DNA of 64,000 nucleotides from Schmidtea polychroa (taxonomy: Eukaryota): assembly GCA_044892525.1 (NCBI GenBank), contig CM097885.1:26910001-26974000 (forward strand). Reading direction: 5' to 3'. Made by a program: the position numbers and the translations under genes. Shown here one piece after another: positions 5,093-35,011 of the stretch; position 1 is the first letter of the stretch; every line of letters begins with the position of its first letter. Below the pieces are notes generated by a model that did not search any database, had not been told where the DNA came from, and was given only the letters and a program-made list of their open reading frames with translations.

Positions 5093-5097
<5 letters not shown>
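4081..5097 (-). pseudogene. Polinton minor capsid (penton) protein, disrupted
   Basis: N-terminal FYTILPSNSCPLIHPDNQASKFMVNLQNPISLNGD*EVAL and C-terminal MFIYTNIIEPIIIGDSSTPLL...IEINIRDDSGKLINF...LTLHFR are typical Maverick penton motifs. Confidence 0.85.
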
Positions 5098-6150
<1,053 letters not shown>

Positions 6151-6852: not shown

Positions 6853-6910
<58 letters not shown>

Positions 6911-6918
6911 TAATAATA

Positions 6919-6950
<32 letters not shown>

Positions 6951-8625: not shown

Positions 8626-9058
8626 TTTTACAGTAATTTAAAATATAATGTTTTATTTATACTACAGAATTGTGTGCCATATGATTCTGATTGGTTGATA
8701 GACTATATGAGTTTTGCTACAATATTTCCATTGATACCCTTGTGAACTGTTGAGTGTGAGCAGTACCCTTGCGAGAAGTGCCATTGCGAGCAGTACCCTT
8801 AGGGGGACAGAATATCTTGTCGGATAAACTCTGAGTATCACTGTGCGACTAATAGTAGTTATATGATTTTGAATCCTTCGATGGTACAATAATTTAGGAA
8901 TTCAAATTTACCATTGACCTTACCATGACCTTACCGTGATCTTAAGTTGACCTTAAAATTTGACCTTAAATTTTGGCCTTAAAAATACCCCCGGAGTATG
9001 ACGTCATATGTATTTGTTACGTCTTTTTTGACGTCATATGTTTTTGTTCCCGGGTCCA

Positions 9059-10324
9059 CATGTTACCCTACTTATATTTTATGGACCAAAACATGAACGC
9101 AGAAGAATTGGAATCAAACGAAATCCAAAGAAAATCCAGAAAACCTAGGCAACAAATATCGGTTGATATATTGAAAAGGATTAGAAAAGAGTTAGACAAA
9201 GAATTTTCTATTAAACATATTGCCGAAGATGATGATATATTCTTAAAAAAAGCATAAAACATTGTCGATAAAATTTCAGAAGTTATGACAGATGAACAAA
9301 TTTTATCGAAGAAAAAAGGAAGACCTGTTAAAAATGAAACTATAGCAAAAATGAAAATATCCGAACTTTTATTGAAAGATTCTTCTTTTTCCCAAAAAGA
9401 AATTCAAATTGAACTGAGAAAACTTGTGATTAGAAGGACTTCAAAACAATGGAGTATACTCTGAAAAGATTAATTCGGGTGCCTGAAGATCGAAATTCAG
9501 AAAAAATATAAATCTCCGACAGGCATGTGGAAGAATGATAAGTTTTGTTCCAGATGATAATTTAATATTTTTAGACGAAACTGGTGTAGATCTACACCAG
9601 AGCAGAAACTATGGCAACTCTCCCAAGAATTGTAAAGTTTCTAAAATTGTTAAATCGAATAGAGTTACTAACATTTCTTCATTGGTAATAATTAAAAAAT
9701 CAAGAATAATTGGCTTTAAAGTAAAAGATGGTCCTTTTGATGGAATTGCATTTATTCAATTTATAAATGAATTTTTGATACTACACTTTTTAATGCATCC
9801 TAATGATGTTTTAGTCCTTAATAGTTGAAGCTTTCTCAAAAGAAGTGATATAATTAATTTATTTAATAAACATGGCATTAACCATAGGTTTTTACCAATC
9901 TTCTATAGGAATATTTTAGCTACTTTAAGTCCAGGTTAAGTAGCCAAGAGAATATTATAAGCAACCGAAATGATTTTAAATTTTAAATTTTAGAAATACT
10001 GAGTGAGGAGTTTGTAGATTTTTCCAGTTGGTTCAGGAATATGCGTAGGTATGTAGAAAAGGCTTTATCAAGACAGGATTTTATTTAATAAATAGTTACA
10101 TGGCTCTAAAGTATATGATGTAAATTATGTAATAAAATATTATATTTAATATTGAAGCTCAACATTTTTTATCAAATATTTTATAAATAATCCTATTTTT
10201 ATTTTATTTTTTTATTCAAATTTTGTATATATTAATGAATAAACCTGTAACGTTTAACGATTAAATAACATTAAATTATACGCACTGATTTAAACAAAAA
10301 AAAATATATTAAGGTAGTAACATG
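9059..10324 (+). mobile_element. Tc1/IS630-like transposon remnant (transposase pseudogene ~9093-10088)
   Basis: HTH-like N-terminus, LIFLDETG first catalytic Asp and degenerate later DDE motifs. Imperfect inverted ends CATGTTAC.../...GTAACATG. Confidence 0.7.
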
Positions 10325-11278
10325 TATTATAACAAATGAAGAGGGCAATTAAATTATATAACAAGACCATTATAATGATGCTTAGATAATGGACCTTTAC
10401 ATTTCTAACCTCTGGATGCTTGAAATTGCGATGACACTAAAAATAGTAACTGTTAGTTGCAATTTTAAAAATAGAAATATGTTTTTGAACAACAAATAAT
10501 ATTGACAAATGATGAACCTTACAACTTAAGAAGAACAACAAAAATTTAGTATATAAGCTGAGAGAATTCTCAGTCAAACCACACAACAATTGTAAGCTAA
10601 GAAGAGTTGCAGATTCAGTAATTGATATTGCATGATAATTGATATTAGAAAATAAAAAATCATTGTATAATTTTTATTGAAGGTAAACATTTTTATTTCA
10701 ATACAATTGTCGTCATTAAATAAAAGCCTTTAAACCAGTGTTTGTGTTCTTATTTGAATATGACATCAAGTTGAGATTTTGAGAACCTCAACAATTTTTT
10801 ATATTCTAATTCTCTATTTCTTTTTGTTCGATTTTAATTATTAAATCTATTTTGACCACCAAATATTAAACGTCTACCTGATACCAAAATACATTGTTGT
10901 TTAAATTGAATTCATGACCAAAAAAAGTAAGATAGCAATGATAAAAATTTATAATCTTAAGCAATTGTCCAAAATTGGGAGGTTCATAATAATTTCCCAT
11001 AATCACATAGAGTCAAAAGTAATAAATGAGAAATAATTTGTCATATTTATTTATTATTTGAACAATATTGTAACAAAATGTAAAATGTAAATGTATCTTT
11101 TTTTGAAAAATATTTAAAAGTTCTCCCTCCATTTACAGTGCATTTTCTGTGACTGCGTGATTTATTGCGAGCATATATGCATACCCTTGAACAAGGGTCA
11201 GCAACCCAAGGCTCTTTAGATGAATAATTGAAGCTTATTTTATCATTTTTGCATTGCATTTTTAAATGTGTAATACAA

Positions 11279-11456
11279 TTTATTGAAAACAATAAAGTGA
11301 TAATTTAAGCCTTTTGCTACGAATAATGTATTTAATGAAAAAAATTCGACTATAAGATAGATTGACAAGGACTATCGTATAGTCGAAATTTTTTTCAATT
11401 AATACATTATTCGCAGCAAAAGGCTTAAATTATCACTTAATTGTTTTCAATAATAA
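11279..11456. repeat. Foldback palindrome / MITE-like hairpin, ~80-bp arms
   Basis: TATTGAAAACAATAAAGTGATAATTTAAGCCTTTTGC...TCGACTATA is mirrored by TATAGTCGA...GCAAAAGGCTTAAATTATCACTTAATTGTTTTCAATA. Confidence 0.8.
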
Positions 11457-13020
11457 ATGCTGCTACCAAGAAATCATCACTTTATACAATTTATTGAGTT
11501 CTAAAAATTGTTAATAAAATAATGTCAAGATCGCTATATCCTTGGCAATTTTGTGAACTTCTTAAAGAAGTTAATTGTCAACATTCCGAACTTGTTTTAA
11601 GTAACAGAAAAAGACGACTTTCTAACAGTGCCGTCCTCATGCGATTTGCAACATGTCCTGAGAAGTATAGTAAGCTACAGAAAAAGAAACTACAGTGAAA
11701 ATGAAACCCAGCAGTTTTGCTTTTGAAAGAAGTCTTTCGTTAAAACATAAAATTGTTTTTGTTTGAGGCAGGCCTAGAGAAAAGTAAATTTTCCCATTTT
11801 CCTAGGATGAAAAAATATCACAGCACAAACGATTCAATGATCATAAAAAGCAAGATCAAATTGTATTCGACAGTTAAAATTGTTCATGAACATTCGCATT
11901 TGGACTTTTGTCAATTTTTAGATTGAAAAAGTTTTGTGAACATTCACTACAACAACCAAACAAAGTCAGTCTTTCATCATGCTTGAAAATGACAGTTTCG
12001 GCATATTCTTTGCGCACTGACGACCTATATTTGAAGAAATTCAACAGAAAAAGACACATTTAAAGATATTTTAAATTATAATATATCATGTTTCCTTTTC
12101 TACAAATTTAGTGTGATATCAGGGCTGTAGCGCCCAGTGCAGAGTTTAAATTTGGCGACCTCCAATACACCACCAAAAAAACAAATACATAACGCTTGGC
12201 GTTCAATTGGTTGTGATAGGTATATTTTTGTAGTCTAAGCGTTGAATCTTCGTTATCTCTTAGGATTTTATCATCTTTGGTGTGGTAGCGGCTAATATAC
12301 AAACGAACATCAAACAATAGTGAATCCAAAACATACTTGAACTATCTTCCAAATAAGTCGAAATCACTATGAAATAGTAGAAATTCTGATGCGTAGGTGT
12401 TTATATTTTTAATTTAAGTGTTTACAACTATTTGTTGAGCGAGTTTTCTCAAAATTATGGCATCATTCTGGCGCCCCCTGTGATTTTACTGTGCCTCCGT
12501 GCCCGGTGCGATCGCCATATTTGTCAGCCTCTGTAAATGACCTTGTGTGACATGACACGCTTCTGTAGTTTACTTGTACGATAACACGTTATATGTTAAA
12601 ATAGTGAGTAAATAATTTAAATACAATATTTGTTTTAATGTAGTTTCTAAATTTAAAGTATCTAAAAAATCCTTCTCTGAACGCACCGCCAGAAGTTTTT
12701 TACCATTAGTACAAACTAAATAATCATGTTGCTACAGTTTCAAATGAGTTTCTTTAGATGTATGCTTACATGTTTGGGGGGGGATAACGAAATGTGAATA
12801 AACCTGGTCTTCGTAAACTGGTACTTGAAAATTTCACCATAAATTATGACCATTTATAGCAAAGGGATTAATAACATTAGTAAGGGTAGATTTATTTTGT
12901 AAATATGAATCTTAGAAAATTAATGAAGTCCGTTTTAAAGGGTGAGAATGTTATCATAAAAAAAATAATTATAACCATAGCTTTAATAGAAGCATTTATT
13001 AATTATATATCACAACCATT

Positions 13021-13278
13021 TCAATGATAGATCTCATAGCCACCTTCACCAGTATTGCCAGTTTCATAACCCCTTCTTATATTGCCATAATCATATGATG
13101 AATATCCTATTTTTTTCCCATAAGGAAAATATATATTATTTTTCTGATACTGCCGCTTGATTCCATATCCATCCATCCTTCGTTTGCTTCGATAGTTCAA
13201 ACGGAAACCCGAAACCATCGGATCAAAAACGAGAATACCCGAAAACAATATTACTGAGATATATAAATAAAAATTCAT
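13021..13278 (-). CDS. Small secreted Gly/Tyr-rich protein, possible peptide prohormone (85 aa)
   Basis: Hydrophobic N-terminal signal-like segment, dibasic sites KRR/KR/KK/RR, and AATAAA ~20 nt after the stop. Confidence 0.6.
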   Translation of the reverse strand: MNFYLYISVILFSGILVFDPMVSGFRLNYRSKRRMDGYGIKRQYQKNNIYFPYGKKIGYSSYDYGNIRRGYETGNTGEGGYEIYH

Positions 13279-13484
13279 AAATTAGGAAACTTAATGAAAA
13301 CTCAGAATTTCTCATATAATTATATGTAATTGAAATTCGTGACAAAATACCGAAAAGGTAATATTTTATTGCCCAACCAAATTGCAAATAATTCGCGTCC
13401 TCTCGGTATACAACAGAGATTTGGGGATTTTTTCTCAACATAAAAAATGAAATTCACACAAGAACTCATGAATCTAGAGTTGGG

Positions 13485-16400
13485 CTATATTTTGTTTATT
13501 TGTTCAATGGAGAATGAAACATTGATAACACCTTCACCCCCTGGGATCTGTAAACTTGTGGACTGATTTAAAGTTTTCATGACCTCTTCGTAACTTGGCG
13601 GCAATTCATTAGCAGGTCTTGGTCCGTCTGTCATTGTGTTCATATCTAGCGCTCCATTCTATTTATTAATTTACAAAAAAAACATTCAACATATTTATTT
13701 TTTTATTCAAATATTATTTATTCACTATTTTTTTCAAAAATATTAAAAAATATACAAATGTTGGGATTAATCAAGGGATTAAAATTAATTAAAAATAAAA
13801 TAATGGGAAAATCTATTTTCTTCAGGAAAGGGTTAGGAACAGGTAGCAAGTGAAAATATAAAGACGTATCCAATAATTTTTAATTAATGTAAAGACCAAA
13901 GAAGATATAAATGCAAAAATTCAAACAAATTAATTAATTAAAAATAAATATTTAATAAATATTTAAATATTTAATCAATTAATTAATTTGAAAAAATTTA
14001 TTATTAATAATTTATTTATTTTTAAGTGTGCAAAATTCAAAAAATAACTTTTCTAAATAAAAATATTTCCATGACAATAAATTCGGAAGAGAAGCTATTG
14101 GGCGAGTCGTCCGGAAAATTAAATAGGTTTCCATGGAGACGTAGGAGGAATTAAGACAATAAAATTTGACAAGCGAAATAGAAGACGATCAACGCAAAAA
14201 AATTATTTAATATTGTTAAATTTTCATGTAATGATTAATGTAACAAAATTAAGATGAATATAGGAAATGAAATAATTAGCGTTTCCATAAAAAATATCCC
14301 TCCCCTAATATAAATCCTAAAATATATGATTAAGCCTTTGTAGGAAATAATTTCTAATTAAATTAATTCTCCTATGAATTCAATTTTTGCGGATGTGATT
14401 CATAATGTTCTTCATGGATATCTTAACATTTTAAGGAAACCTCAAAGACAAATTAAAAACTTGTGTTGAGTTTCTTATTCTGATCAAGGACACGAAGCAT
14501 TGGATTATAAGCTCTGTCATATTGAATATTAATATTAACTCAACAAAAGCTTGGATATTTTTCAAAAAAATTGGAAGTCTTGAGTTTTTAATTAGATAAT
14601 TATTAACGTCGATGTTTCTGACTCTACGTGTTCTGTAAAAACAATTGGATAAAGAAAACTCAATGTATATTTTTATTCAAATTTGTATAATCTGCAATTT
14701 ACAAAACTCCAAATATCGCAATAAAATGCCTATTCTGACTATTCAGTCAGTCTCGTTGTAACCGCTTTGATTCTGCACGTTCACTCTTTTCTTTACTCCT
14801 TTGACTTAACTTGATTCTTTTACTTTCCTTTCCGCTAATTCTATCTTCTGACTTTAATTTTTCCTTTAATCCTACTGTTGAATTCTTATTCCCTACCTAA
14901 GGCAAAATGTCGATTGTTTCTGAATGTCAGGTCCCTTATATAGTTGAAATAATCGCATTGATTAATGGTACTTCAACTAGATCGTCTCCCTTTGACAAGC
15001 TTTGTCTTGAGGCCTTTTTCATCTTTTCTCCTTCGAAAAAAATAATTAATTGTCTCATCATGCATCTCACTTGTGATAATCTTTTTCCCGCTTCCTCATT
15101 ACTCATGTTGTCATGGTAATGGCTTTCCAGATTTCACTTTGTTTACTTTTCTTTCTGTTTACTTAACTCGGGGTTTCCTTAATTAATTAATTAATTAATT
15201 AACGATTTCCTGTTTTTCGACCCTTCCTGAACATATTCGAATCAATCCGTACTCGCCATAATCTTTCCCATCGTCTCATTTACACCTGACCGGTTTTTCA
15301 AATTTTAATTCGATGATTTCTTGATTTTGAATTTTCAATATTCCTTTTTTTAATTATTTATAAATTTTAAATTTTAGAACCCCAGCAGAAGGTTATATCT
15401 AGGAATTACAAAATTATCGCATTTTCCCATTACCAATAAAAGTGAAATACTTTGTCTCATTGGAAATTTTTTTATTAAAGAGTTAATATTTATTATATCG
15501 ACCTTATTATTAATAGATTTCTACAAATAGTGTCACTGCGCCAAATAGTATCACTGCGTCAAATAGTATCACTGTGTCAAATAGTATCACTACGCCAAAT
15601 AGTATCACTACGCCAAATAGTATCACTGCGTCAAATAGTATCACTGTATAATGGATTTTGGCAAAATGGAATGTTTTTAGTGATACTATTTAAATAGTAT
15701 TACTATCCAAATGGATTCAAATACTCTAAATAGTATTTTAAAATTTTTTTATTCATTAATGATACTATGTGTTTAATAATATCAGTGATATTATTTAGAG
15801 GAATCCGCTAGTTACATCGACATTATTACTAGTTATATCGACATCTAATATATAATTGTGGATGTGTGTGTCTGTCTCTGTTCGCTATACAAATCCAAAC
15901 TTTTAAAGATGTCTCAACCAAATTTTGCACAGCTTCCTTTTTTGTCCAGGCCAAGATTATAGGCTACTTTTTACCCAAAATATTTGACCCCATGGGGTAC
16001 CTCATTTATCAATATTGTTTTCTAGTTACTGAGCAAAATACCAGTAAACAGAATAATTAAGAAAATTATCAGGAACCAAAAGTGTTTCTCGGGGTGAGTT
16101 TGAATAACAAAATGTTCAGGCTTTTTTGACAGCATCCAACCCGAACCAGTTAAGTTACAACCCGATAAAACGGGGCAGAGGGGTGGGTTTGCATAACAAA
16201 ATTTTAATTTCAGTGGAATAGAATTGCAAGGGGACGAGGGGAACATCACTTTCGAAACTATGCCTGGCTGTGTTAGAGAGTCATTCTAACACCAAAGAAT
16301 TAGAGGGTCAATGATATCAATGCTCAGATTCAAAACCAACTTCCAGGCAAGGCCAGAGTCTACAAGTCAATTGATACAGTTACCAAAGAAGCTCACGCTG

Positions 16401-17574
16401 TATTCTATTCAACAGAGTTCCTCAATTCATTGGAACCTCCTGACCTGGTCTACCTTCTCGCAACTTGATTCTTAGATTGGGGGGTACAGATTTTGGTTCT
16501 TCAAGATTTGGATCTACCAAAGTTGTGCAATGGAGCTCGGCTCCCCATTAAAAATTTGTTTCAGAACATTATAGAGGCGACCATTCTGACTGGTTGTGCA
16601 AGAATAGAAGATTTGTTCATTCCAAGGATCCAACATATACCAACTGATATGACTTTTGACTCTTGATGGCTCCAGTTCCCAGTTCGCCTTGCTTTTGCCA
16701 TGTCCATCAACAAAGCCCAGGGACAGTCACTGAAAGTTGCAGGAATTAATCTGGAGAAGCTGTGTTTTTTTACATGGTCAACTTTATGTTGCTTGGTCCA
16801 AAGTTGTTTCAGCCAATAACCTCTTCATCTTTGCATCACATGACAGAACAAAAAAGCACTTTATTAAAATGTCAGGTTCATAATATCATTTTAAAATGTA
16901 ATATTATGCTTCTTTTGTATTTTTGAAAGGTTTATACCATGTGATATATGTTGAAAATAAATAATTACTTTTGGAAAATAATATGCATTTTACTGAAAGA
17001 AACCAATTTTAGAAAACAAATTATATTGACCCGGGCAGTGACGGGTACCCCAGCTAGTTATTACTAATTATATCGACATTATTACTAGTTATATCGACAT
17101 CATTAAAAAATAATGTAACCCGAGTTATTGCGGAAATGAATGACGACGTTAATTGAAATTAGGAAAATTTCTAATATAATTTGATGTAATATTTAGATAT
17201 GGATTTCTAAGCTTATTTTACTGATTACATTTTCAGTTGATCACCTATAGTCATTATGAAAATAAATGAAATGTGTAAAGAAAACAGATCAATAGTGAAC
17301 AAAAAAGAAATATTTATAATGTTGATATAATCCGGAATAGCATTGTAAAATATTATATTCAAATTCTGCAATATTTTGTCAGATTTTGTGTGGATTTCAC
17401 CAGCTGCATTCAATTTAAAACAGATTTTATAAAGCATTGAAAATTTCTTACTCGAAGATAGTAAAGCTTCCTCCATCTAAGACAACCGAAGTATAATATT
17501 GAGAACAACAAAATCACCAAAATGAGAATTGCAATAAAAATCCAAACTAAATTTATGGTTTGAAAGGATTCCAT
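13485..17574 (-). CDS. Putative two-exon single-pass membrane protein with cytoplasmic PPSY motif (exons 17574-17452, 13658-13485; ~98 aa)
   Basis: [46 protein letters not shown] ... [31 protein letters not shown]...; phase-0 join. Intermediate exons cannot be excluded. Confidence 0.55.
15526..15648. repeat. 18-bp minisatellite, ~7 copies
   Basis: Directly adjacent AAATAGTATCACTRYGYC units with no spacers. Confidence 0.9.
15844..17057 (+). mobile_element. Non-autonomous Helitron with PIF1-helicase remnant
   Basis: 5' TC, 3' hairpin CCCG...CGGG then CTAG, inserted between A and T with no TSD. Internal [20 protein letters not shown]...HGQLYVA. Confidence 0.92.
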
Positions 17575-18099
17575 ATTGAAGTGAAAGCAAAAACAGTAAA
17601 ACAAATGATAAACCCTCTAATCGCAATTTAACCACACCCATTTTGTTTTAATATTATAACATTTTTACATTATAGTTGATTTGCCTGTCAAATTACAACG
17701 GCAAACTTTCAAGTTACTCTTCATATTTTTACAAGAATTTTAAAATTTTTATTTCATTTATTTTTAGATTATCAATCAATATTTTGTTTTATAATTAACA
17801 CGAATTTTTGACGAATCAAAGATATCACCAAATATAAATTCTAGTCAAAAGTTCCTAAGATTTCGGAAATAAAAGGCGTTCTGAATAATATTGAGTTTCC
17901 AAAGAGTATAAGAATAATTGAAGTATTTGAAATATATTTATTAACTAATACAGTATAGTTTTGAAGGTTGGAATCTGAATTAAGATTTGTTTCGTATTTG
18001 TTCCATTTCTGGTACTAAGATTGGCAAAAGCAGACAAGCGACGATAATCGATATAAGTCTTTCTAATTTCAAACTGCAAATGCGAACTGATATTTCCAT

Positions 18100-18791
<692 letters not shown>

Positions 18792-20501
18792 TGAATTTGG
18801 TGTTTTTCGTTATATTTAAATCAATACCATTATTTAATGACTGTTATGTTTTCAAAATTCAGATAATTCCATTGAAAGAATGGCAACTTTTAAGATAAAA
18901 TTTCATAAATCCTTAGCTCCATACAACGAAACTCATAAGATTACCAGCTAAAAGTAAACATTCTAAAATAACAGATTTTTGAAAAATGAAACAGCTTAGA
19001 AATCTCAAAGATAATTACATTTTATTTGACTGAAATTTATATTCTTTCACATATAGATTAGGATATTAGTGATCTGGATCTAGACTCGACCTTACAACAC
19101 CGAAATTCCAACAACAATCACAATCTAAAGTCCTCTATATTTATTACAATTAGAATTTAGGATCACTCACCTGCAGTTTGTCATTTAGGATCATTAATGT
19201 CTAGCTGCATCCAAAAAAGAGCGTTCTCAGACATTGAATCTATTTTATTGCAATTAACTATTGCACTTAAACTTGTAAAAATACGATTTCCTTCCATTAA
19301 ATTCTCATCTTCCATCTACAAAGGGCTCTTCACCAAAATCCCATTATTGTCCTGTGCTTTTCCCGAGACATGAATTGGCTTTTGAAATAAGGTCACCACT
19401 CAACTGTTCTTTTGAAAAGTAAACAAAATGCTTGATAACATAAGATGTAGAAACAATAACAATCTTCTAGATCTACTCGAGTACTGATACTTCATATGAT
19501 TCACAATTTTCACAAAAAACAAAAAGAAATGAAAAATTTTTTTCATTATTCTCATCTCATTTCTCGACTCCGATTAATCAATACTACCACCCCCTATGAT
19601 TTTAATAAATCTGCTAATTTTCGATGAGGATTTATTATTTCAGAGCAGTGTTCTCAATCCGAGACCCTCAAGGTGATTTGGAGTAGCCCGTCAGAAAAGT
19701 TACTGAAAAAACCGTTTGTTTAATTTTTCATGGAATTTTTATTCAGAATGGCAGGTGGTAAACCTATGTGTTTGCTATCCCAGATTAATGTTTCTGTTCT
19801 TAAAAAGCCAAATCTTTAAAAGAAACTACACAACAATGCATAGCGACTTTGATAAAAACTATAAAGTTTTTTATAAAGTCAGACAAGATAAAGTTATTTC
19901 TTTAAAGATGATTCTTCAAGGGCAACTAAATCTTTTACAGTATCATTTAAATACAAGTCATCGTGTTACAGAAGCGGCGATGAATGTTTGCAAAAAACAA
20001 AAACGTATTCAGACGGTGAAACGGTAAAATTCTGTTTCAAGAATGTGCAGATTCTTTGTTTGCTGAGATTAAGAATAACAATGAAATCAAAAAGCAGATA
20101 TCAGATCTTCAGTTATCTCACCAAACTTTATTAAAACGAATTGAACTTATATCTAGTGGTGGGTTACTGGTGGTTGAATGTTTAAGTGCTGTTACCAGCG
20201 TAACCCAGAATACAACATTGTTTCCCTCTTGGTACCCGTTGAGCAATCAACGTTGGTACTGTACCAAGGGGTTGAGTACTCCCAAAAAGTGAGCGCGTCA
20301 AGCACTATAGTTGTCGAGCACTCTATGGGTTCACGGACGCCGATAGAAGGCACGTGTCCGATTTGTTTCGGTCCCTCATCGAGATTGTTTCCCCAAACGC
20401 CTTTTTACCAATCATCTTGTTTTGGACAACAGCAAAGTTCAATCTCATACTCATTAGATAACGGATCATTTATTTAATCACTACTAAATGACAAGGTTCG
20501 T

Positions 20502-21008
20502 TTACGCACTCTCGAACGTCTCCCAGGATTGTGGATTGGCTTCCATTTCTTTCAATTTCTCCTGTTCGGTTAGCCAGGCCCGCTTCAATTTGTCCCGGGT
20601 GTTCCGCCCTAGCCGTTTGCGTTTCGGCTTGCTTGCCTGGGCTGGTGGGTATATCTGGGCCAACTCCACGGAAAGTGGACGAATCTGCTCGCAAAGGGTG
20701 TCCTGGACAAACCTTTCGTTCAATTTACTCTCGAGCGAGCGCACTTGTAGCTTCAGCGCTCGGATCTCGAGTTGATCTTGCTCCGCCTGGGTCTGGAGTT
20801 GTGAGATGCGCGTAGTTTGTTTTTTCATGTCGGCCGGACTGAACCACGTGCTTTCGAGTTCTCGGCACTTGATCTTGAGTTTCTCGACCCGACTTCGAAG
20901 TTCTTCGGCTTGATGTTGGGCCTGTTCACGGTCCTTTCGTAGGTTTTCGAGGAATTTGTACACTAAATGGAGGAAAAATGAAGCTCTACAACTGGTCTCC
21001 ATATGCAT
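20502..21008 (-). CDS. GC-rich orphan ORF, coiled-coil-like, inside the 5.8-kb insertion (possibly a spliced exon)
   Basis: 168-aa ORF with E/K/R/Q/L heptad-like composition; GC content far above the flanks. Confidence 0.5.
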   Translation of the reverse strand: MHMETSCRASFFLHLVYKFLENLRKDREQAQHQAEELRSRVEKLKIKCRELESTWFSPADMKKQTTRISQLQTQAEQDQLEIRALKLQVRSLESKLNERFVQDTLCEQIRPLSVELAQIYPPAQASKPKRKRLGRNTRDKLKRAWLTEQEKLKEMEANPQSWETFESA

Positions 21009-21285
21009 AAAAGCGATACAAATAACTATATAGAATTAACAGACGAAGGATAGGGAGGGTCATCCTGTCCCTGGGGGTACCCCTTACGCAATATGACTTA
21101 TATGCAATGTCCAAAAGATGAGCTATAATACGACAAATGTGCACGCCGAACAATCACATAAATGTTTTAATAATAAAACAAATTTTACAAATTGTCCTAA
21201 TTACTACAAGAACAAAACAAAAAAAAATATCCGGCACAACATAATATCACTAATTATATCACTCCGCATTGTCACTCCCGGTGAG

Positions 21286-21654
21286 CTAGACCGGGTTCTT
21301 GCGGGGCCTCCCTCGTTTTCGTGGAGGGGCAACTGCCCCCTCCAGCTCCTCTGGGGTTTTCCCTTCTGCTTCGGCTCTGATCTGGAGTTCTATCCTCCTC
21401 AGCCGCATCTGGGCTGCTTCCAACTCGATCGATGCCCGATCGCGGGCCTCCTGCAACAAGTCATTGTCCGGTTCCACCTTCACCCATACCTGGGCATCGG
21501 GCTCTGGGCCGGTCCGGATAATCCGATTGGAACAGTCCAGGTCCCGCCCCTGACACCATCGATGAATATGGTGCCAGATGTACCGCGTGCGAAGGCGGGT
21601 GATTGTCCATTGTTCGTCCTCTTCGCTGCTGAGGTTATCGTTTGGTGGTGCCAT
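21286..21654 (-). CDS. GC-rich orphan ORF ending in an AT-hook
   Basis: 122 aa, C-terminal PPRKRGRPRKNPV; ATG directly after a CCAG acceptor-like site. Confidence 0.55.
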   Translation of the reverse strand: MAPPNDNLSSEEDEQWTITRLRTRYIWHHIHRWCQGRDLDCSNRIIRTGPEPDAQVWVKVEPDNDLLQEARDRASIELEAAQMRLRRIELQIRAEAEGKTPEELEGAVAPPRKRGRPRKNPV

Positions 21655-22044
21655 GCCTGGAATGTAAACGTTAATACCCGTTTAACTCGCGTCACTTATT
21701 AATGGTCGTCATAATAAAATACATCGAATTAACTCACATATCAATGACTAAGTTTATTACGATTGTTATAACTACTTTTATCAAAGAAAAAAAAATAAGT
21801 TTTGTTTATAGGTTTTCCCAATTTAATTTTTAACTACCTAAAATTAAATAACTTTAATAAAAGAAAATTTAAAGTTGGTGTATAGGTTTTACCAATTTAA
21901 TTTTTAACTACTTAAAATTAAATAACTTTTATCCAAATTTAATCATTTACAATTATTATCGTCACCCTGATTTAAGGCCTTTTGTTTTACCACAGTAATC
22001 GTTGTTTAATTAGCGAAAATCATGGCCGTTTTATGAGAATTTAA

Positions 22045-22781
22045 ATGAATTGTCCCCCCGGATCTTTTAAAGGTGATGCAAGTCATTACAGCAGGGTTGT
22101 AGAAACAGGCAATTGGTAATTCTTTGTATAATTTTTAGTTTTTCTTTTAAAATTTTTCAAATACAGGCATCAAGCTAGAGAATCAGAACTTAAAGACTTT
22201 GATTTTAATATCGCCGAACAGAGATCACTTCACTCATCAACATATAAATACTTAGGAGGATGGCCTGATGTAAATTTGTTATTATTTTTAAATATTAAAC
22301 TATGAATTTTAGAAAACATCATTAAGTACTTATCCAGAATTTTGTCAGCAAAAGAAAATTAATCATTTGGGACTTGACAACGAAATGCCGAGGTTTTCTG
22401 TTGAAGCTATTGATAGTCCTCTTTTTGATGCCAATTATAATGATGATGGATTTCCAAGACATCGCTTTGGATTTGATAGACAACAAATGGAAACAACCTA
22501 TGGAGTTGATTATGTTTATCCTTTTCAACATGTCGAAATTAAAATAATATTTTGTCCTTGTCATTCAAGAAAATTTATCGTTAGACCAAAGGTCCAGATT
22601 TAACTAAATCGAATAAAAGGTGTTTGTCTCAATTTTCAGATCCAGGTGAATTTAGCCGTCTAGGAAATAACACATGTGGGATGAATCATGAATGTATGCC
22701 AATTCCCATTTGCAGCGTCAAGAATGTCTTACTGATACGGGCCTTTTGTTCAAGAGTAAAACAAAATTTGTCTTGTTATAA
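22045..22781 (+). pseudogene. CFAP95: CFAP95/C9orf135-like ciliary protein pseudogene, 4 exons (22045-22115, 22167-22269, 22313-~22543, 22585-22781)
   Basis: Spliced translation GSFKGDASHYSRVVETGNWHQARE...LHSSTYKYLG...GFPRH...TTYGVDYVYPF...KRCLSQFSD...RLGNNT-WDES*MYANS matches my recollection of the C9orf135 motifs in order. The last exon has a frameshift and a stop. Confidence 0.75.
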
Positions 22782-23607
22782 CTATTCCATAAAATGGACG
22801 TACAGTCGTATTAAATTTTTGAGTAATAATTTATAAAATGACGAGTAATGGGTGTTTTGATTGAAACATTAATGTTAGGGTAGTAAATTTCAATCATGAT
22901 TTATTTATCGTACTTTTACTTAGGTATTTCATTGACAAGAATGCTGAATTAATTTACACTCTGTCAGTTTGATTTGTACGAATAAGAAATAATAACATGT
23001 CATTTTGTGCTACGATATCAATGTTGTGTAACGGTTTGTAATTGGGTAAATCATAATGTTATTTGAGCTCTTGGCAGCTATTGGGGGTAACGTTGGTAAT
23101 GTGACATGAGCGGGTGGCTGTCAGTTAACGACTACCGTTAGGAGGGTCTGTTCTATTTAACTCCTTTTATAGCCTCTTTCTCCTTGCTATCCAAGCATAT
23201 TGTTATATGAAAACCCTAATTTCTAATTCAAATAACTAAATATATAAATGATTTACAAAATTCTATTATATTTTCTACCTTATATTTTAAACTAGATTCC
23301 ATAATTTATTAAAGTTACACTTCAGGTATTTATAACTTACACATTTAATCAAAGTATAGTTTATAATAAATTATATATTTAAGTGAAAGGGCATAATTCT
23401 ACTTTATAATCTAGGTTTTTATAAATGATACGTTGAGGTATTATGGAATTCTAATTTATAACTCCGACATTTATAAGTTATATTCTTTATATAAAATTTT
23501 AGTTTCTGGTTTAGATATGCGTGTATTTAAGTGGATTATAAAATTCTAGCTCATAATTCAGAACTATTATACATTCACACATTATGTTCTTGGAGATGCA
23601 TCTTGTA

Positions 23608-23757
23608 CTAACCCTAACCCTAACCCTAACCCTAACCCTAACCCTAACCCTAACCCTAACCCTAACCCTAACCCTAACCCTAACCCCTAACCCTAACCCC
23701 TAACCCTAACCCTAACCCTAACCCTAACCCTAACCCTAACCCTAACCCTAACCTAAC
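23608..23757. repeat. Interstitial telomeric array (CCCTAA)~25
   Basis: Direct observation; includes two CCCCTAA variants. Confidence 0.97.
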
Positions 23758-26148
23758 GTTTATGGATTGTAAATAAGGTTATTTTTTATCATTACGTAAT
23801 AATACATTGCATTTTTAAGGCTAATACAAAAAGTATATATTATAATTCAATATTCATAGCTTACGCTTTAGGTATAATATAACGGTATATTTACCCTTTA
23901 GGATTATTATGTCTTTATATGTTATATATTCAATAAGACCTAAAGTTCAGTTTTATTATGAAATACTTACCAGTTATGTTTTCGAGAACAATATAAAGTT
24001 AGATTTCATCATTTAATATTTATAAATTATATTTTTAAGTGCGATATCAAATTACTTTTTATACTTTAGGAGTATTACATAGTTATACATTATATTTTTA
24101 AGTTCGATATAAAATTATTTTCTATTCTGTAGGAGTATTACATATTTATACATTATATTTTTAAGTTTGATATAAAATTATTTTCTATTCTGTAGGAGTA
24201 TTACATATTTACAAATTACAATATCAAATTATTTTATAATTTTAGAGATAGTACATATTTATGAATTATATTTTTAGAAACAATATGAAGTAAAATTTTA
24301 CAAATTAGGATTTTACACATTCATCAATTATACGATATAAACTTATATTGATAATTTAGAGGTATTACATATTTATCAAATATAATTCTAAGTACAGTAG
24401 TAAGTTATAGTTTACCCTTTAGGAATTCTAAGTATTTAGCGATTCTAACATATTTCTATAGTTTAGGAATATATATATTTATAGACTGATGTTTAAGTGT
24501 AACAGGAGAGTATATAGTTCATTTTACGATTCACGCTTGTCGAACTTCTTTGTGAGCATTATTACGGTTAATTTCGAGAAAGATATTTACACTGATACGA
24601 AAAATTATTTCTCAATGAGGTTCGATAAACGTGTAAGTGGAGAGGTCTTAACCGACTACATTAGCTGAATTGTAATTGCTGTGTTCAATTTGGGTCTGAG
24701 ATCTACTCGATTAGAATTCTAGTGTAATTTAGTGTATAGAATTTTTAGTGGTGATTTTAATTGTGTAATGCATTCATAGTCGGGAAGAATGCTTGCTTAC
24801 ACGGCCCCACTGTGACCGCTACGACAAGCCCTACTGTTGTGTTGAGTCGAAACATCACTGTCGACCGATAAATAAAGTATATGGAGCCATAGCGGAGGGG
24901 TTTTATCGACACAACTCCATGGTAGAACCATGAAGTGGCCGACCTCCGATGACCAAACAAAAAAAAATATATAAGGTATATTGCATGTCTGCATGTGCTA
25001 TGGATTTTACTAATTGATCGAATGTAGGACTGATCAGAGACGCATATGTATCAATACGCCGCCGATCCTTCTTACATTAGATAAAAATAATAAGCAGGGT
25101 TTGATCTAAGCATAATTAATATTAACAATAACGATCAAAGTTAATTCAAAATAAAATAAATAATATCATTATACATCAAAATTCAAATAACAAATACTCA
25201 CTATCAATGTGATCTTCAAGTTTTCGCAAAAAAGAATTTGGCATAAAAAAGTGATTCTTGCGACTGAAACGTGTCAGTATATATACTTATTTTGTACACG
25301 TGTATGTATTGATGCATTAAAACAAACTCGAATTCTTTTTATTCCAGAATTTTCTATTTTACGATTTTGATATTTTTAATGGCGATTTTTGTGCCATAAT
25401 TTTTGTTTTTATTTTTATTTTTTAATTATTTTTCATTAATTTTACGTCCATGATGAATTTGGAACGGTTCCAGAACATTCTATTTTACTTTTAATTTAAT
25501 TTTTATTTTAACTGATGTTTTTATGAATTTCTTTTTGAGATTTTTTATTTTTTATACTGATTTATTTATTTTCCTTAACTTTTGTTGTTCTAGATGACTT
25601 TTGTGTTGGTCATCGCCATTTTTATAGAATGTTCTGGGTTTTTCTGGAATGTTTTATTGTTTTTATCGTCTTTTAAGTTATTCGAGTTTGCTTTTGGTAC
25701 TTCTATGTTTATTTGGTTATTTTTGAGTTAGTTTTTTGCATCACTTCTTGCTTTTGTATAATTTTATTTAATTTCAGGGTTTAGGTTTTTGTTGTTTTCT
25801 CCTTTAATTACCATGGTTTATTTGGTGTAAGTTTTAATATTTAACTATACTTGGTGCTTTTTTTACTTGCTGTGTACCTACACGTTTCCGTCACAATTAG
25901 TATTTTGGGTCTAGAAATCAGTTCTAGCCCAACACTAGTAATATACTTGAAGTATTGTTTGACTTAAACAATGCACCTGGTTTCAGTATAGCAATGAATG
26001 AGTCATATGATATTTCTCAGACATAAAAACTTATTATTTGGATAAAATACATGTGTAAGATACATTTAAAGAGGAATTGTTGGCACTCTTACCCATGAAA
26101 AATACAACAAGAGGTGAAGATATATACAAAGACCTAAAGCAATGTTTA

Positions 26149-26454
26149 GTTACTTCCGTGTTATCTTACCCCCCAAAAATTAAATTATAAAATACAATTA
26201 AAATAACAATATAAAAAATGAGAGAATACATTATTGATGACGTTATTGAACATGAATTTATTAAGACTATCTGTGATTTATGTGGCACAAACGTGTTCTA
26301 AGCAACAGTGGCGATGTGTTCGACACTATTCTCAATGACATTGTGGTTTTCTGGCCACCTGGATGAGTTTGTAACTGTGATTTAGAAAATAAATATAATA
26401 ATTATGTGTTCTTTTTTAATTTAATTTTTGGGGGTAAGATAACACGGAAGTACC
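26149..26454. mobile_element. 306-bp MITE with 9-bp TSD (Merlin- or Mutator-like)
   Basis: TIR TACTTCCGTGTTATCTTACCCCC...AAAAATTAAATT; flanking duplication CAATGTTTA. Confidence 0.85.
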
Positions 26455-28382
26455 CAATGTTTATTAAGCAATGACATCGACATCAATACGCTTGTATCTG
26501 TTACTGTAGATGGTGCTACAGCCATGTTAGAAAAGCGTATTGGTCTGATTGGCTTTTCTGAAGGCAGATGGAAATTTCCCAGACTTCCAAGCTTATCATT
26601 GTATTATTAACCAACAAGCACTTTGTTCTTAACTGAAAAATTATGAATTTAAAAGTATAATGAACATAATTGTAAAAACTGTGAAAATCCACGAACAATT
26701 TAAGTTGCTGTTAGAAGAGTACGATTTAGTTCTACTTTGGTTGAGTAAAGAAAAGGTTTTGATGCGATTCTGGAATCTAATGCTTGAAATCTAAAATTTT
26801 TTTTGAAAGAAATCCAAAATAGAATTGTTAAATAATATTTAAAATTCTGTTTTTATTGGGAGACTAACATTTCTAACGAAATTACGGGTCAATTTCAAAT
26901 TGCAAGGTCGGAATCAAACTTTACCAATAATGGCGAAGGAGATAAATATGTTTAGATGCAGATAAATCAGATTACTATTGAATAGACCAGGGGTGGGGAA
27001 CCTTTTTATTTCCATAGGCCACATTGAAATTTGTCGCCTCCAAATGGGGCCACAATCAAAAGTTATTTTAACATTAATTAATTTCATTTTAAATCTTTTG
27101 TTTATAGTTAGTAATTAAAACAATATTTATAATTAGTCTCCAGATTTGAAAAATGCAGCTATACGAAATATTCTGGAAAATGTTTATTATTTCTGAATCG
27201 AAAAATTGATGCAAATAAGTCATCATTTCACAAATGAGTGCTCAGTAATCTTATTTATTCGTCTATATACGTTTTGTATTTATGGTTGTGAATGATTGAC
27301 TTTTATATTTCGTTCTGTGTACTCGGCGGGATGTTTACAGTACGGTATATATACAGTTCAGTCAAAATTCATGGTGTTTTATATAAATTAAGATTTATTT
27401 CGATAAGGCTCCGGAGGTTCACCAGACCTTTGTTTCATCTTTGGGGTGAATTTTTTTTATACTGAATGTATTATGTTCACTTGGTGTTTCAAATTTTAAA
27501 ATCACATAATTATATCTTTTTTTATGGATAATTGACACATTTCCTGACTTTATGAAATTTCATTCCGCACTTAAAGGGTTAAAGCAAAGCTAAACTTATT
27601 CATCAAACAAATTTTTACACACGAAATTGTTAAAGGAAAACTCTTGGTTAACAATGAGGTTTTCAAGCAGTCTTTGGAAATAATAGGGACATGCATAATA
27701 TATCGAATGTGTGGTTTTAGCCAAAAATCCATTCGATTGACTTTTAAATACATAATATTTATAAACGTGAACTTAATAACAATAATTCTATCCTCAAGGC
27801 TGTTAAATATAATTTTTGAACAAAAATCTGGTATGAGATCAGATCAATACCACTTAACACTCCTTAAAACCGCAAACATTAAAAATTAATATTTATAAAA
27901 TAAATTATTTAAAGGCACCATAATCTAATAATTTACCTTATTAATAAATCAATATCCATGATTTATTGGAAAAATCAATTTTAAATCACACTTAATAAGT
28001 CTAAAATTTATATTTCAATTTATTCAAATAGATTACACTTTAAGCACTTCAAAAGCTTTAATTGTCGACAACACAATAAATAAATATAAAAAACACATTC
28101 AAAAATAGAATTAAAAATCAGAGCCAATAAATCAAAAGATTTATTATTAATCTTCCTTTAAAACCCAGTGATAGCATTTGCAAATTTTGATGATAAATCA
28201 TTAACAGCTTTAATTCTAATAAAATTAGAAAGCACTTTAATTAGTTTTATTTAAAATAATACACTTCCTGAAAACCCATTACAATTAATATTTAATCATA
28301 AAATGAGTCAAACGATAAAATATGAAATAATGATATCAACTTAACAATTAATTTTAGCTTAACATGCAAAATTTAATTAAAT

Positions 28383-29003: not shown

Positions 29004-29478
29004 CACGTTGACTGCCACGCGTGTTTACAACAAAATCCCCGTCAGGCCACCGGCGCCACTGTAAGATGCGTGCTCTGCTACCGCATGTCTGTTTACATTT
29101 CTTTCGGTACTCTCAGCCCGATATCTATTACGATCCTCATTTATCAATAAAAGAGAAGAACTGGAACGATCAAAGGCACGAGCAAATCTCAGAAAACCCA
29201 CTACTTTTTGTCCAAGCTGCCCTGGTCAACCGCAACTTTGCAGTGAATGCTTCAATATTTTGCACTGTAAATAATTTTGTTAATAAACGATTTTTAAAAA
29301 AATTCAACAGTATTATTATCTCCTGTCATATATTTATCTAAATATGTTCGGAAATCCTTTGGAAGGAGTCACCCGATGTGGCCTGATGATAACTCTTGCT
29401 GTCACCCGAATACGGGTGACGTGGCCTGATGAGAACTTTTGCTGTCACCCGAATACGGGTGACACGGCAGTTAACGTG
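29004..29478. mobile_element. Non-autonomous piggyBac-like element
   Basis: TTAA|CACGTTGACTGCC ... GGCAGTTAACGTG|TTAA, with subterminal GTCACCCGAATACGGGTGAC palindromes. Confidence 0.88.
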
Positions 29479-30858: not shown

Positions 30859-33009
30859 TTAAGAATGCATCAAAACGAATTATTCTAGAAGATTCATTTT
30901 TTTCCAAATCAATATTTATTTATTCTTTCTTCTTGTCATAGCTTCTTCGTATATAAATTTAATTTATAACTTTCCTAATTAATTTGATTATGGTCCTTCG
31001 TATGTAAATATGACCAATAGTCATTTAAATTTAAATTTAATTGTAGGATGTCTGTAGGTAGTTATCAAAAGATCGTGATTGGTGGAGTTCAGTCGTTAGA
31101 TTGAACAACGCGTTTAAAGTTGTAAATTATGAAGATGTCCTCTGTGTCATAAGTGTAGACGCAAATGAGCCTGGGAACTATTTTCCAAAACCCATCATAG
31201 AACGAGAAAAGTCGAGGTATGAACCTTTCCCCACGAGAGTACGAAAGCCTTTGATTTTAATCAAGAACTACAATACACATGTAGTATTCTCGTGATAGTA
31301 CAAGATTTTCATGGATCAAATTATCAAATCTAATGTTTTGTTTAGTTATCTGATAATTTTTTGTGTCATTTGCTTATTTTTATTATATAAATGATTATGT
31401 GAAAATGTTGAAGGTATCCGGTGAACTGAACTTATATTTTATAAGTGGAAAATTATTCAAAATAGTTTTTCGAGATCTTAAGCATGTATTTGCCGAGTAA
31501 AAAGTAAGGAAGATAGGGTTCCAGTATAAAAAATGATTTCAGAAGCCAATATAATTCTTAAAATTACAAGCGTTTGATAATTCTCATGAATATTTCTAAG
31601 ACGGTTTCCGTCTTCAAGATATATTCCATTTCAAATCCCCCTCCTTTATACTGAAACAAGTGCATATAAACAAGTGTAAATAAACACTATATCTTTTTGG
31701 TCCTTATTTTTTATTCCTTGAATAGTAAGAAACATATTTACATAATCTGTATTTGTAACTTCAAATAACTAAAGACTCCTTGAATCAAAATTTCGTTAGT
31801 GAGACAATAACAAATTTCACTCTTTTTATCTTATATCTTTACATGCCAAACAGCTCTTGTGTACTCCATTATTATTTTCCAACCTCACACATCAGTAAAA
31901 GAATGACTATTATTAATGTTGGGATATTAAAAAAAATTTAAATACTTGAAAAAGAGCCAAAATATCAACATATTTTATAGGAAGAACTGGAAATATATGA
32001 CAATTAAAAAATAAATTTCAAATAAAAGTAAACAAATTGTTAAATTTAATAACCAACAATAACTTTTGATTTAATAATTTACTTGTTCAAGTCAGAAACA
32101 ATAATATAGTGTGACACCCCGAGTATGAAATCCGACGGAACCCTACCTGAAATCCTATTCTGTACACGAAAAGAACTCCAAATCTGATTTATAATATCAT
32201 TTAAATTTCTACGTATTTCACAATCCGCCTGATAAAGATTTTCTTCGAACATAATGGCAAATTTAGTTGAGTTTGTTTTCCTTTTATTTGCTATGATTAA
32301 CAGGTATCAAAATTAATCCGCAATAAATAATTCTCATCTCTAAATTGAATACCACTAATTTAATTATTAGACCGCAATTTAACAGGATTATATTAAGTTT
32401 GTCAGATTCGAGGATTTTGTTTTCTTAATAAAATGATCAATGTGGTCAACAAAGATATTAATTAATCAGAATTCACGTGAATACGTTGTCTAAGGACCCC
32501 ATTTTGTGTAAAAACGTTATATTTGCATTGATCATTTTTCCTCTACTTTCTCCCTAAAAATATTGATTTTTCAAATTTTTATCAATTTGCACTCATTTAC
32601 ATAATCTCAACCAGTCTCAGTTAATCAATATAAAAACAGCAGGAGTCAACTTCTTTTTGAATTGAAATAATACTCCTCTCAAAAAATTATTCGAACAAAA
32701 TATCCGTAGGAAATTCTTTCAATGTAGTAATGTATAATTAAAGAATTCAACAAACAACATCAATCAACATCACATATTCACACAATCTTTAATTAAGTTA
32801 GTTAGATATCTGTTTGTTTAAATAATTTGGATTTGGCAGATTTTGTGAATTAATTAAAACTTGTTATTTAGAAATTCTTTGATTAAATATATATTATTAG
32901 TTTGAAGATTTTTGTTGCAAATTTAAAGATGGATCTAAAGATGGATTTAACTGGCGACCACGCCGAAAATCAAAATATCAACGCCATTTCAAAATCGACA
33001 AAATCGCTA

Positions 33010-34131
33010 ATGGAATGCCTACCGAAATCATGCCAAGACATGCTCACACTGAACATCAGACGATATGATGGATGAGGTTTAAAAGAAGCAGAAGAATGGA
33101 TCAGAGATATAGAAGAATGGTTGCTGACAAATGGACAGCGATTGACAAGCACTTTCGATGTGTTATTAGTGGCAGAAGCATAGACATTGTGGGGAAACGT
33201 CAGAGAAACAGAAACCACAGATGTAAAAGCCAAAGCGTGGTTCTTAAATACGTTCACAATTACAAAATCAATAACTGACAAAATCAGAGAATTGGCAGCT
33301 ATGGAACAGGAAGATGATGAAAGGTTTGCAGCTTTTGAGATACGGCTAAGGAAAGCTTTAGCTGAAGTTATAAATTCTGGACAATCTGAAGAAGATATTG
33401 TTCAAGATCTCATCGCAAATAAAGCACGCGATGCGAGACTGAGAGAGATACTATTGACGAAGCCAGAAACAAAAATTGAAGAAACGAGATCATTGGCGAA
33501 AATTTTTGAAAGTAACAAAAATGGAAACCATAAAACAGAATTTATTAAAGCAATCGGTCAAAGAACATACGCTAGCGTGACTGAGGGAGGGAAGATGAGA
33601 ATTCAAAAGAATACCCAAGATCCCATGCATACATCATCACAAAGAAGACTACCAGAAGACCAATTTAGTCACCACAGATCAAGAAGAGAAGAACATCCTA
33701 TACGCGGACCAATACAATACGAAGGAAATAACCATGGTCGTCGAGAACAATCTCCAAGAGAACAATTCTTGAGAAATGCGAGAATCCCGAATAGCTCAGA
33801 AAGGACGCTGCCAGCAATATCCATGAAAAATATTGCAAGGAGGCTGTACAATGAAAGTAGGGGACTACCACAAGCATCGGTCCCAAAATTAACGGTAGGT
33901 GATTGTTTTTGCTGTGGCGAAAGGGGACATAGAAGGTATGAGTGTCCACTGGGAAATAAATGTCTGATATGTGGCAAGGAAGGACACGGGTTCCGAGATT
34001 GTTTTTCGTTACGGAAAGATGTTACACAACGATATCAAAGAATAGCGTGCATAGAAGAAGAAGATTCAAAATCTGAAACAAGAGATTACACTGAGAACGG
34101 CCAGGATTTCAGAATGGATCACAGCAATATG
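33010..34131 (+). pseudogene. gag: Element A gag (two CCHC knuckles; stops at 33073 and 33181; tail resumes at 42177-42280)
   Basis: CFCCGERGHRRYEC and CLICGKEGHGFRDC; the frame continues across the ATATG TSD. Confidence 0.9.
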
Positions 34132-35011
34132 TGTAGTGAGCCGTTACACGGCCTTAACAATATCTATATACCTATTATACTATATTATATTATATTATAC
34201 GATATTATATTATATATATAAATGCGCGGTCACCAGCGACTAAGGACCAAACAGAACACAATAACAGTCAATCAAAATTCGTGCGATCAGCTAATACTTC
34301 TACTTATCAATCAGGCTCTATTAATCAATCTCAGAAGAGTAAAGCAAATTCGATGCCATGTTATCATTATCAAGATAAACTGTATTCGGCTCCCAATAGT
34401 TTTAGTGTTGGCTCTCATAGACCAACACCCTCATCCATTACAATTCGCGAAATACGGAACAAATCCTAACAATAATATAAAAACCTAAATTTGTTTATTT
34501 TGCATTTATTTATTAGTAATTGACTATTTGAAATTCTTACGCGAACTTTATAAAATCGTTAAGCTTTTTAAATTATATATTTTTAAAAATCTGTTTATTT
34601 TTTATCGAATGATATAATTTTGTATTTTTTGTAACTTTGTTTACTTATATGTATAAATTTTGTAAAAGATTTCCTGGCTTGTTTATATATTCGCGAACTT
34701 TATAAAATCGTTAAGCTTTTTAAATTATATATTTTTAAAAATCTGTTTATTTTTTATCGAATGATATAATTTTGTATTTTTTGTAACTTTGTTTACTTAT
34801 ATGTATAAATTTTGTAAAAGATTTCCTGGCTTGTTTATATATTCCAAAAAAAATGAATAAACTGGGTGTTTTAAAATATTACAATTGTAGTTGTTTTTTG
34901 AGAATTATAATTCGTTTTCAATCTTGATCGCTATATTTGGATTTTGATTTTGAAATAATATACTTATCCTGATCGTATTAATAACAGCTTATTGAAATTG
35001 TATAATCGGAC

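Follow-up and report, generated by a model that had tools for sequence, protein, structure and literature searches.

A 5.8-kb TG...CA insertion in a decayed planarian hAT gene: a candidate giant solo long terminal repeat with an intron-containing CFAP95 copy

What kind of mobile element carries a host gene with its introns, lies between clean target-site duplications and yet holds no transposition gene? The question is raised by a 5778-bp unit with TG...CA ends at 20157..25934 of a 64,000-nucleotide stretch of Schmidtea polychroa (GenBank assembly GCA_044892525.1, contig CM097885.1, positions 26,910,001 to 26,974,000, forward strand; this whole stretch is the window). An earlier note, made from the letters alone, had proposed that the unit is a solo long terminal repeat (LTR) from a giant planarian Gypsy element of the Burro kind, and that this LTR had accumulated genes. 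A precise insertion into a decayed hAT transposase gene is confirmed here, and the identity favoured for the unit, with guarded confidence, is a solo LTR from a giant retrotransposon of Gypsy type (Burro-like).

At its borders the sequence reads CTAG then TG on the left (20153-20158) and CA then CTAG on the right (25933-25938), and 4 bp is the sole duplication length compatible with these letters. The left copy of the target-site duplication (TSD) lies at 20153..20156 and the right copy at 25935..25938, both placed by the junction letters and the left one also by a reading-frame test of the interrupted gene. The left part of that gene occupies 19683..20156 on the plus strand, recognised by alignment to the intact hAT open reading frame (ORF) of the window (49840-51717, minus strand), which served as comparator; the right part, also on the plus strand, occupies 25939..26983. 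Comparator residues 149-175 align to 20074-20154 and residues 182-215 to 25952-26053. Excision of the element with one CTAG kept gives a hAT score of 107 with one stop, in a decayed frame one codon shorter than the comparator. The other three excision models score 39 with five stops (the Helitron1 cut), 34 with four (both CTAG removed) and 52 with six (both kept). The CTAG duplication is real, because only the single-CTAG excision scores well against the comparator. The precise duplication and the split hAT frame of the earlier note are thereby borne out, and coincidence of the two CTAG words is largely refuted by hAT homology that stops and resumes in frame at the junctions. The right part of the hAT gene is itself interrupted at 26151-26452 by an insertion of about 300 bp with 42-bp inverted arms (95%), and hAT homology stops near 26989, where a further element seems to start.

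The LTR-like termini noted earlier are also present. They match in inverted orientation at 8 of 10 letters, the match decaying further inward; the minus-strand terminus agrees with TGTNR and the plus-strand terminus deviates at position 3. By themselves the termini are within chance expectation and weak: pairs combining a 4-bp repeat with TG..CA at 1-10 kb number 12,257 in the window, and 136 of these reach at least 8/10 inverted matches, eight of the 136 being GC-rich.

Copies of the element were sought in public contigs of four runs, X1 (possibly the source sample), X2, X7 and X12 (a second organism), over 19300-23590, a region that takes in the left flank and 3.4 kb of the 5.8-kb element; the contig results are drawn from the 24 of 543 loose-end rows and the 32 of 6,340 pieces that were listed. 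Part of the element is contained in 13 of 19 listed runs, the best share being 0.41-0.50 of 603 words, with small shares in X8, X11 and X13. The left junction exists in reads, as an X1 contig of depth 155 is identical across 19300-20181; another X1 contig begins precisely at 20157. Six X7 contigs (agreement 0.5) have loose ends before 20157 and two plus two X12 contigs have them before 20156-20157, while a single X7 contig aligns from 20153. Left flanks vary across ten contigs of two runs, the right-flank partners lying outside the aligned region. The loose ends that precede the left terminus are not alike, and CTAG therefore does not form a constant part of that end. No further copy was found within the window, and the terminal DNA motif had no match in viral contigs or prokaryote genomes.

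Read depth adds a feature that the earlier note did not have, a fall of more than 100-fold from the left end to the interior, with a roughly threefold step near 22036. In X1 the summed contig depth amounts to 155-423 for the flank, rises to 1.66 million at 20164-20307 and is 85,000-126,000 over the second of two GC-rich ORFs (ORF B, below), and the X2 profile has the same shape. Summed contig depth does not equal copy number, and single-contig depths were used instead: 3,013-6,194 in X1 against 155 in the flank, 266-889 in X2 against 28-42 in the flank, and 8,348-9,000 in X12. On these depths the left end is highly abundant and the inner segment is present about 10- to 40-fold. Coverage is continuous through all 30 bins in X1 and X2, and a joint of depth 1,635 links 21827 to 21946. 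Gaps of X7 and X12 coverage in parts of 22036-23590 carry no evidence of absence. The 17-letter word at 25348-25364 recurs in one X12 loose end before the left terminus (null 8/19,006 per stretch, a chance of about 1% across the 24 listed rows), and a second loose end has 9-10-letter matches only (null 4-11% for the T-rich tract of the right end). Nested insertion or head-to-tail joins would explain the longer word, which does not separate the rival explanations.

The most unusual cargo is a copy of CFAP95 on the plus strand at 22020..22779, with four exons and introns of 41-51 nt at 22116-22166, 22270-22312 and 22544-22584. Exon 2 matches Pfam PF15139 weakly (E 2.8e-4, below the curated cut-off). 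The sole database relative, P0001, aligns through all four exons with 87-90% identity over exons 3 and 4 (87% in exon 3) and scores E 3.5e-18 on the Pfam CFAP95 model; searched in metagenomes, it returned a single 35% locus (L001). Two introns have GT..AG boundaries and the third AT..AG, with a non-canonical donor at 22544. The copy is broken by this third donor, by a frame break near 22050 and by a frame break and a stop near 22700-22715; its last frame is presumably the CFAP95 C-terminus.

The CFAP95 segment is multi-copy in DNA and keeps its introns there, as in an X2 contig over 22233-22660 (depth 392) and two contigs across intron 1 (depths 266 and 77). Joints that skip all three introns occur in X7, at depths of 1,683, 487 and 453, and in none of X1, X2 and X12; X7 is probably, at a guess, an RNA run. 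A spliced X7 contig has variants in common with the multi-copy DNA form. However, these common variants do not show expression from elements, because a recent capture would leave the majority DNA form similar to the host gene. The pseudogene of the earlier note is thus present and broken, and it proves to be more than was claimed: near-complete, with three introns, and multi-copy in DNA. High-depth CFAP95 contigs of X1 carry variants at 22346, 22563 and 22646 that are absent from the X2 contigs, a difference that hints at separate recent amplification and could also arise from contig simplification.

To the left of CFAP95, on the opposite strand, lie two ORFs. The core of ORF A (20502..20960, minus strand) encodes 152 aa with a predicted long coiled coil and a basic patch; it is delimited as a core because the window copy deviates from the most abundant contig near 20970-20990, around the ORF A start. 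ORF B (21286..21654, minus strand) encodes 122 aa with predicted helices and a C-terminal word that we take to be AT-hook-like. Their GC contents are 0.53 and 0.60, and at third codon positions (GC3) 0.62 and 0.66, the pol and hAT genes of the window having a GC3 of 0.27-0.39. ORF A looks to be under selection, to judge from gaps in its copies. Eight listed ORF A pieces hold 168 substitutions and 2 gap letters, and eight listed non-coding left-end pieces hold 91 substitutions and 50 gap letters; gapped pieces number 1/8 and 7/8, respectively (Fisher p 0.01). These 16 pieces are a listed selection of the 6,340, and the piece 20938-21083 (four gap letters), mostly upstream of the core, was excluded. 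Pieces of ORF A occur in many diverged copies and in the second organism, X12.

Neither ORF could be tied to a known family. For ORF A, none of 33 candidate homologues was accepted, none was found in viral contigs, the Pfam matches were below cut-off only, and the best hit of an Atlas search (0.81) was among generic coiled coils. For ORF B, none of 14 candidates was accepted, and neither the Atlas nor viral contigs gave a match; three matches among 1.84 billion representatives were rejected, two stemming from internal repeats of unrelated proteins and the third being weak (27% identity, with a coiled coil and a basic word). Single-sequence models predict long helices for ORF A (predicted local distance difference test, pLDDT, 86) and a helical fold for ORF B (pLDDT 74), the latter with no match at E <=0.001 in a fold search of PDB and BFVD. 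Over ORFs A and B the X7 depth is about 0.002 of that in X1, equal to the non-coding end, and over CFAP95 exons it reaches 0.1. An X7 joint with GT..AG boundaries, 454 bases long (20296-20751, plus strand, depth 49), runs antisense to ORF A.

Both ends of the element carry a hairpin, again a feature beyond the earlier note. The left one (20160..20208, with a second cluster at about 20225-20271) lies at the end most abundant in reads, the putative U5 (unique 5') end, and 4/200 shuffles fold equally well. The right one (25905..25932) has an 11-bp stem and a z of -4.09, and 1/200 shuffles fold equally well. Each exceeds 99.2% of about 3,000 random window stretches, a null without composition matching. 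Between ORF B and the CFAP95 copy lies a 74-bp AT-rich duplication (21787..21932) with deletion variants in reads. Further right stand an interstitial telomeric array, about 25 units of CCCTAA on the plus strand (23608..23757) and the sole such array in the window, and AT-rich tandem repeats of 63 and 50 bp (24016..24268), whose degenerate relatives flank the array on either side, between about 23366 and 24470. Before the right end comes a T-rich tract (25340..25900, plus strand), A-rich when read on the minus strand, that contains a repeat spaced at 126 bp.

The GC-rich ORFs, telomeric repeats and AT-rich repeats are thus as described before, and so is the lack of transposition genes: the longest stop-to-stop frame of the element has 201 aa, and tblastn of five gag, pol and hAT proteins of the window found no match in it. 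No direct repeat between the ends, no long terminal inverted repeat (TIR) and no word like a polypurine tract (PPT) on either strand was found in the element. Rfam returned nothing at E up to 5, no tRNA was seen, and none of ten further short frames within the element or close to it matched Pfam. A short cysteine-rich frame (24769-24933, plus strand), situated where the right half is locally richer in GC, likewise had no Pfam match.

The TG...CA ends, the short inverted match, the 4-bp duplication and the varied left flanks together indicate a DDE integrase. A solo LTR is the simplest unit, because there is neither a long TIR nor an LTR pair. A fixed TSD of 4-6 bp made by an integrase is expected of a Gypsy solo LTR, and the CTAG duplication of this copy agrees with it. 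Among Drosophila families of the Gypsy group, 4 bp is the modal TSD length (PMC3276498), and TGTNR ends are given for Gypsy and Ginger by Bao et al. (PMC2836005). What had been proposed earlier stands so far as a mobile, multi-copy unit with integrase-type insertion and gathered genes is concerned; that it is a Burro-like solo LTR is the likeliest reading, short of demonstration. The minus strand is the putative sense strand, to judge from ORFs A and B and from its A-rich start. With this polarity the conserved end would be U5, ORFs A and B would be sense and CFAP95 antisense, and the CFAP95 copy with its introns probably lies antisense within the U3 (unique 3') region.

According to this proposal, a full element would integrate by means of its own DDE integrase, giving the TG...CA ends and the 4-bp duplication, and recombination between its two LTRs would then delete gag-pol and leave one LTR. 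At an earlier time CFAP95 genomic DNA or unspliced antisense RNA, the telomeric tract and the AT-rich repeats would have entered the LTR of a master copy. The CFAP95 introns are proposed to survive because the gene is antisense to the element RNA, so that they would remain unspliced during retrotransposition and an intron-bearing gene could be copied tens of times. Many subfamilies with a common U5 end and ORF A and with differing U3 regions may produce the depth gradient, and ORFs A and B would be accessory proteins encoded by the LTR.

Several observations weigh against a solo LTR of this kind. Both Gypsy elements in the window have TSDs of 5 bp, not 4 bp. No paired copy or gag-pol was found around the element within the window, and none of the three listed loose-end cells at the left terminus (20156-20157) resembles a primer binding site (PBS) or a PPT. 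Hairpins at both ends are not generally expected of LTRs. A single LTR family should show even depth, and the summed depth in X1 is 28,000-187,000 over ORF A and 6,600-18,600 from 22036 on; such a gradient also fits a 3'-anchored, 5'-truncating element. Among the listed contigs none joins the CFAP95 segment to a terminus. Finally, the variable sites of ORF A fall at third positions in 6/10 listed cases (p 0.077), which is not significant.

Other origins were weighed against the same evidence. A self-contained DNA cargo element of the non-autonomous kind, bounded by very short inverted termini and by hairpins on either side, which a DDE integrase or transposase would move as a unit in trans and which would gather modules of genomic DNA (introns, telomeric tract, satellites), is a lesser but credible possibility. 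Hairpins at both ends would suit it, a stepwise depth gradient is compatible with modular subfamilies, a 4-bp TSD with TG...CA is also typical of Ginger (PMC2836005), and capture at the DNA level yields intron retention, as in Pack-TIRs (PMC8277862). Yet Ginger TIRs measure about 40-270 bp against 8/10 letters here, no partner transposase is known, and passive cargo would not usually include a gene like ORF A, which seems to be under selection across many diverged copies and in another organism as well. More doubtful is a composite. The unit would then derive from an LTR element with an internal deletion, or from a fusion of two elements at the telomeric array, its outer ends having been retained by chance, and CFAP95 would have become multi-copy separately, for instance by subtelomeric duplication. 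The position of the telomeric array in the middle of the element, next to tandem repeats, and the roughly threefold drop near 22036 would fit this origin, and the X12 word shared with 25348-25364 is taken to show that nested or head-to-tail joins occur. Against these points, however, a single TSD spans the entire unit, no duplicated terminal segment or internal PPT-like word on either strand is present, related AT-rich repeats flank the array on both sides, and 30/30 bins are covered in X1 and X2; a composite is regarded as decidedly improbable.

Somewhat less improbable than a composite, though still unlikely, is an element of rolling-circle type (Helitron- or Helitron2-like) or of Penelope-like type, fixed at its 20157 end and variably truncated or extended at the other, for which the right CA and the inverted match would be incidental. 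Penelope-like elements have a hammerhead ribozyme in their terminal repeat, and the coiled-coil ORF, the telomeric tract and a hammerhead core-like word at 20383 (minus strand) recall them. The stems flanking the word are unconvincing by eye, and the Rfam ribozyme search was empty at E up to 5. Helitron1 inserts at A|T; the right end here, hairpin-CTAG-T, resembles its 3' end, and A|TC is found at 20151-20153. The steep one-sided gradient is in keeping with both kinds of element. In Helitron2 each end bears a hairpin, and the CRe-1 to 3 derivatives of this group have TSDs and one over-abundant end (PMC3627910). In contrast, the Helitron1 cut disrupts the hAT frame (39 with five stops versus 107 with one), and reads break at 20156-20157, not at 20152, with the exception of the X7 contig from 20153. 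Neither 3' end has an asymmetric inverted repeat at a distance of 20-30 bp; the best match is terminal, and only 136 of the 12,257 chance pairs attain 8/10 inverted matches. The TSDs of CRe elements are 7-19 bp long (PMC3627910). That the CTAG match and the termini arose by chance, with no single insertion, is scarcely credible: pairs of this kind are frequent in the window, but hAT homology stops and resumes in frame at the exact junctions, and both depth and loose ends change at 20157.

If the solo LTR carrying CFAP95 antisense is real, its route of gene duplication would appear DNA-based and yet pass through RNA. Antisense-intron logic is used in retrotransposition reporters, of which the element would be a natural version. 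Giant flatworm LTRs would then be coding, cargo-bearing modules with selected proteins of their own. The gene duplicates ascribed to LTR elements in the work consulted are intronless retrocopies from mRNA (PMC5131818). A literature search (titles and opening abstracts, with few subscription papers) found no intron-containing gene described inside an animal LTR, no paper on captured genes that keep their introns in antisense orientation and no paper on a transposon with CTAG target-site duplications in Schmidtea. Should the LTR assignment fail, an abundant hairpin-ended element with 4-bp TSDs, outside Ginger and both Helitron groups, would be more surprising still. A wider idea, which must be called speculative and rather improbable, is an undescribed, very abundant class of hairpin-ended, integrase-mobilised modular elements (or giant LTRs behaving so), with a common terminal module and a selected coiled-coil gene, that swap cargo and amplify intron-containing host genes. 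CFAP95 copies would in that case be spliced and expressed from the elements and vary in number between populations, a transposon setting the dosage of a ciliary gene.

The window as a whole is AT-rich animal-type DNA, rich in transposons. Its two Gypsy elements are nested, and the LTR pairs of both are near-identical. The outer one (32800-45550) has LTRs of 153 bp and the TSD AAGTT; the inner one (34132-42171) has LTRs of 1036 and 884 bp, the length gap being a 152-bp tandem duplication, and the TSD ATATG. The first ORF of the inner element (35006-37753, plus strand, 915 aa) encodes a ubiquitin domain (Pfam E 3.7e-9) directly before DUF7041. The intact hAT frame at 49840-51717 (minus strand, 625 aa) comprises a Spin-doc zinc finger, DUF4371 and a dimerisation domain. 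A 43-bp tandem duplication at 29378-29463 contains a hammerhead-like core word with no Rfam match at gathering scores, and a (TAA) microsatellite of about 346 units fills 62894-63932.

Among known systems, miniature terminal-repeat retrotransposons (TRIM) and large retrotransposon derivatives (LARD) are defined by two terminal direct repeats with an internal PBS and PPT. Both are rejected, as the element has no two terminal direct repeats with internal PBS/PPT. Helitron1, with 5'-TC and CTRR-3' ends, a 3' hairpin and no TSD, is rejected on the hAT frame and the read breaks given above. Likenesses to Helitron1 and Helitron2 are the terminal hairpins, the hairpin-CTAG-T right end, the one-sided abundance and intron-bearing cargo; the hairpins at both ends that characterise Helitron2 are found here, and that group is rejected on the missing asymmetric TIR (both orientations, 8-15 letters, offsets 0-2), the symmetric terminal match and the true 4-bp duplication (PMC3627910). 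Ginger1 and Ginger2 share the 4-bp TSD, the TGTNR-type end and the 3-7 kb size, and they are rejected because the element has no TIR of 40-270 bp and no integrase, and because CTAG is neither CCGG/CCGT, as in Ginger1, nor within RTATAY, as in Ginger2 (PMC2836005).

Closer parallels concern the movement of host genes. CFAP95 here keeps three introns, lies opposite to the ORFs of the element and is seemingly within one LTR. In SUN, introns are reportedly retained through antisense orientation. Rider/SUN in tomato is alike in that an LTR element moved a host locus, of more than 20 kb, but that was one hybrid transposition event (PMC6762207), whereas the cargo here is seemingly amplified about 10- to 30-fold. 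LTR-mediated retroposition, as in maize Bs1, likewise places a host gene in LTR-element DNA from which it can be recopied, but the retrocopies of Tan et al. (2016) come from mRNA by template switching and are detected by intron loss (PMC5131818), unlike the intron-bearing copy of the present element.

The nearest likeness is to Burro. Burro and GYPSM1 are giant planarian Gypsy-like LTR retrotransposons (Jurka 2007; Grohme et al. 2018; both via PMC6431247), and Burro, present in thousands of copies, contains tandem repeats and accessory ORFs as well as an env-like region (PMC6431247). With a total length of >30 kb and internal regions up to 25 kb (PMC6431247), it leaves room for multi-kb LTRs. 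The consulted text of PMC6431247, PMC11410931, PMC8532177 and PMC10558129 gives no LTR length, TSD or terminal sequence for Burro. Membership of Burro would entail a linked polyprotein of 4,800-5,100 aa, and no internal region is present at this locus. By description alone, the element resembles Burro in its size class, in its great abundance of copies, in having tandem repeats, accessory ORFs and a coiled-coil coding capacity, and in occurring in more than one related organism; an intron-containing host gene and a telomeric array, as found inside the putative LTR here, are absent from the description of Burro in the consulted text of PMC6431247. CFAP95 (PF15139) is a ciliary protein, and its copy here is broken, inside a mobile element and part of a DNA segment that is itself multi-copy.

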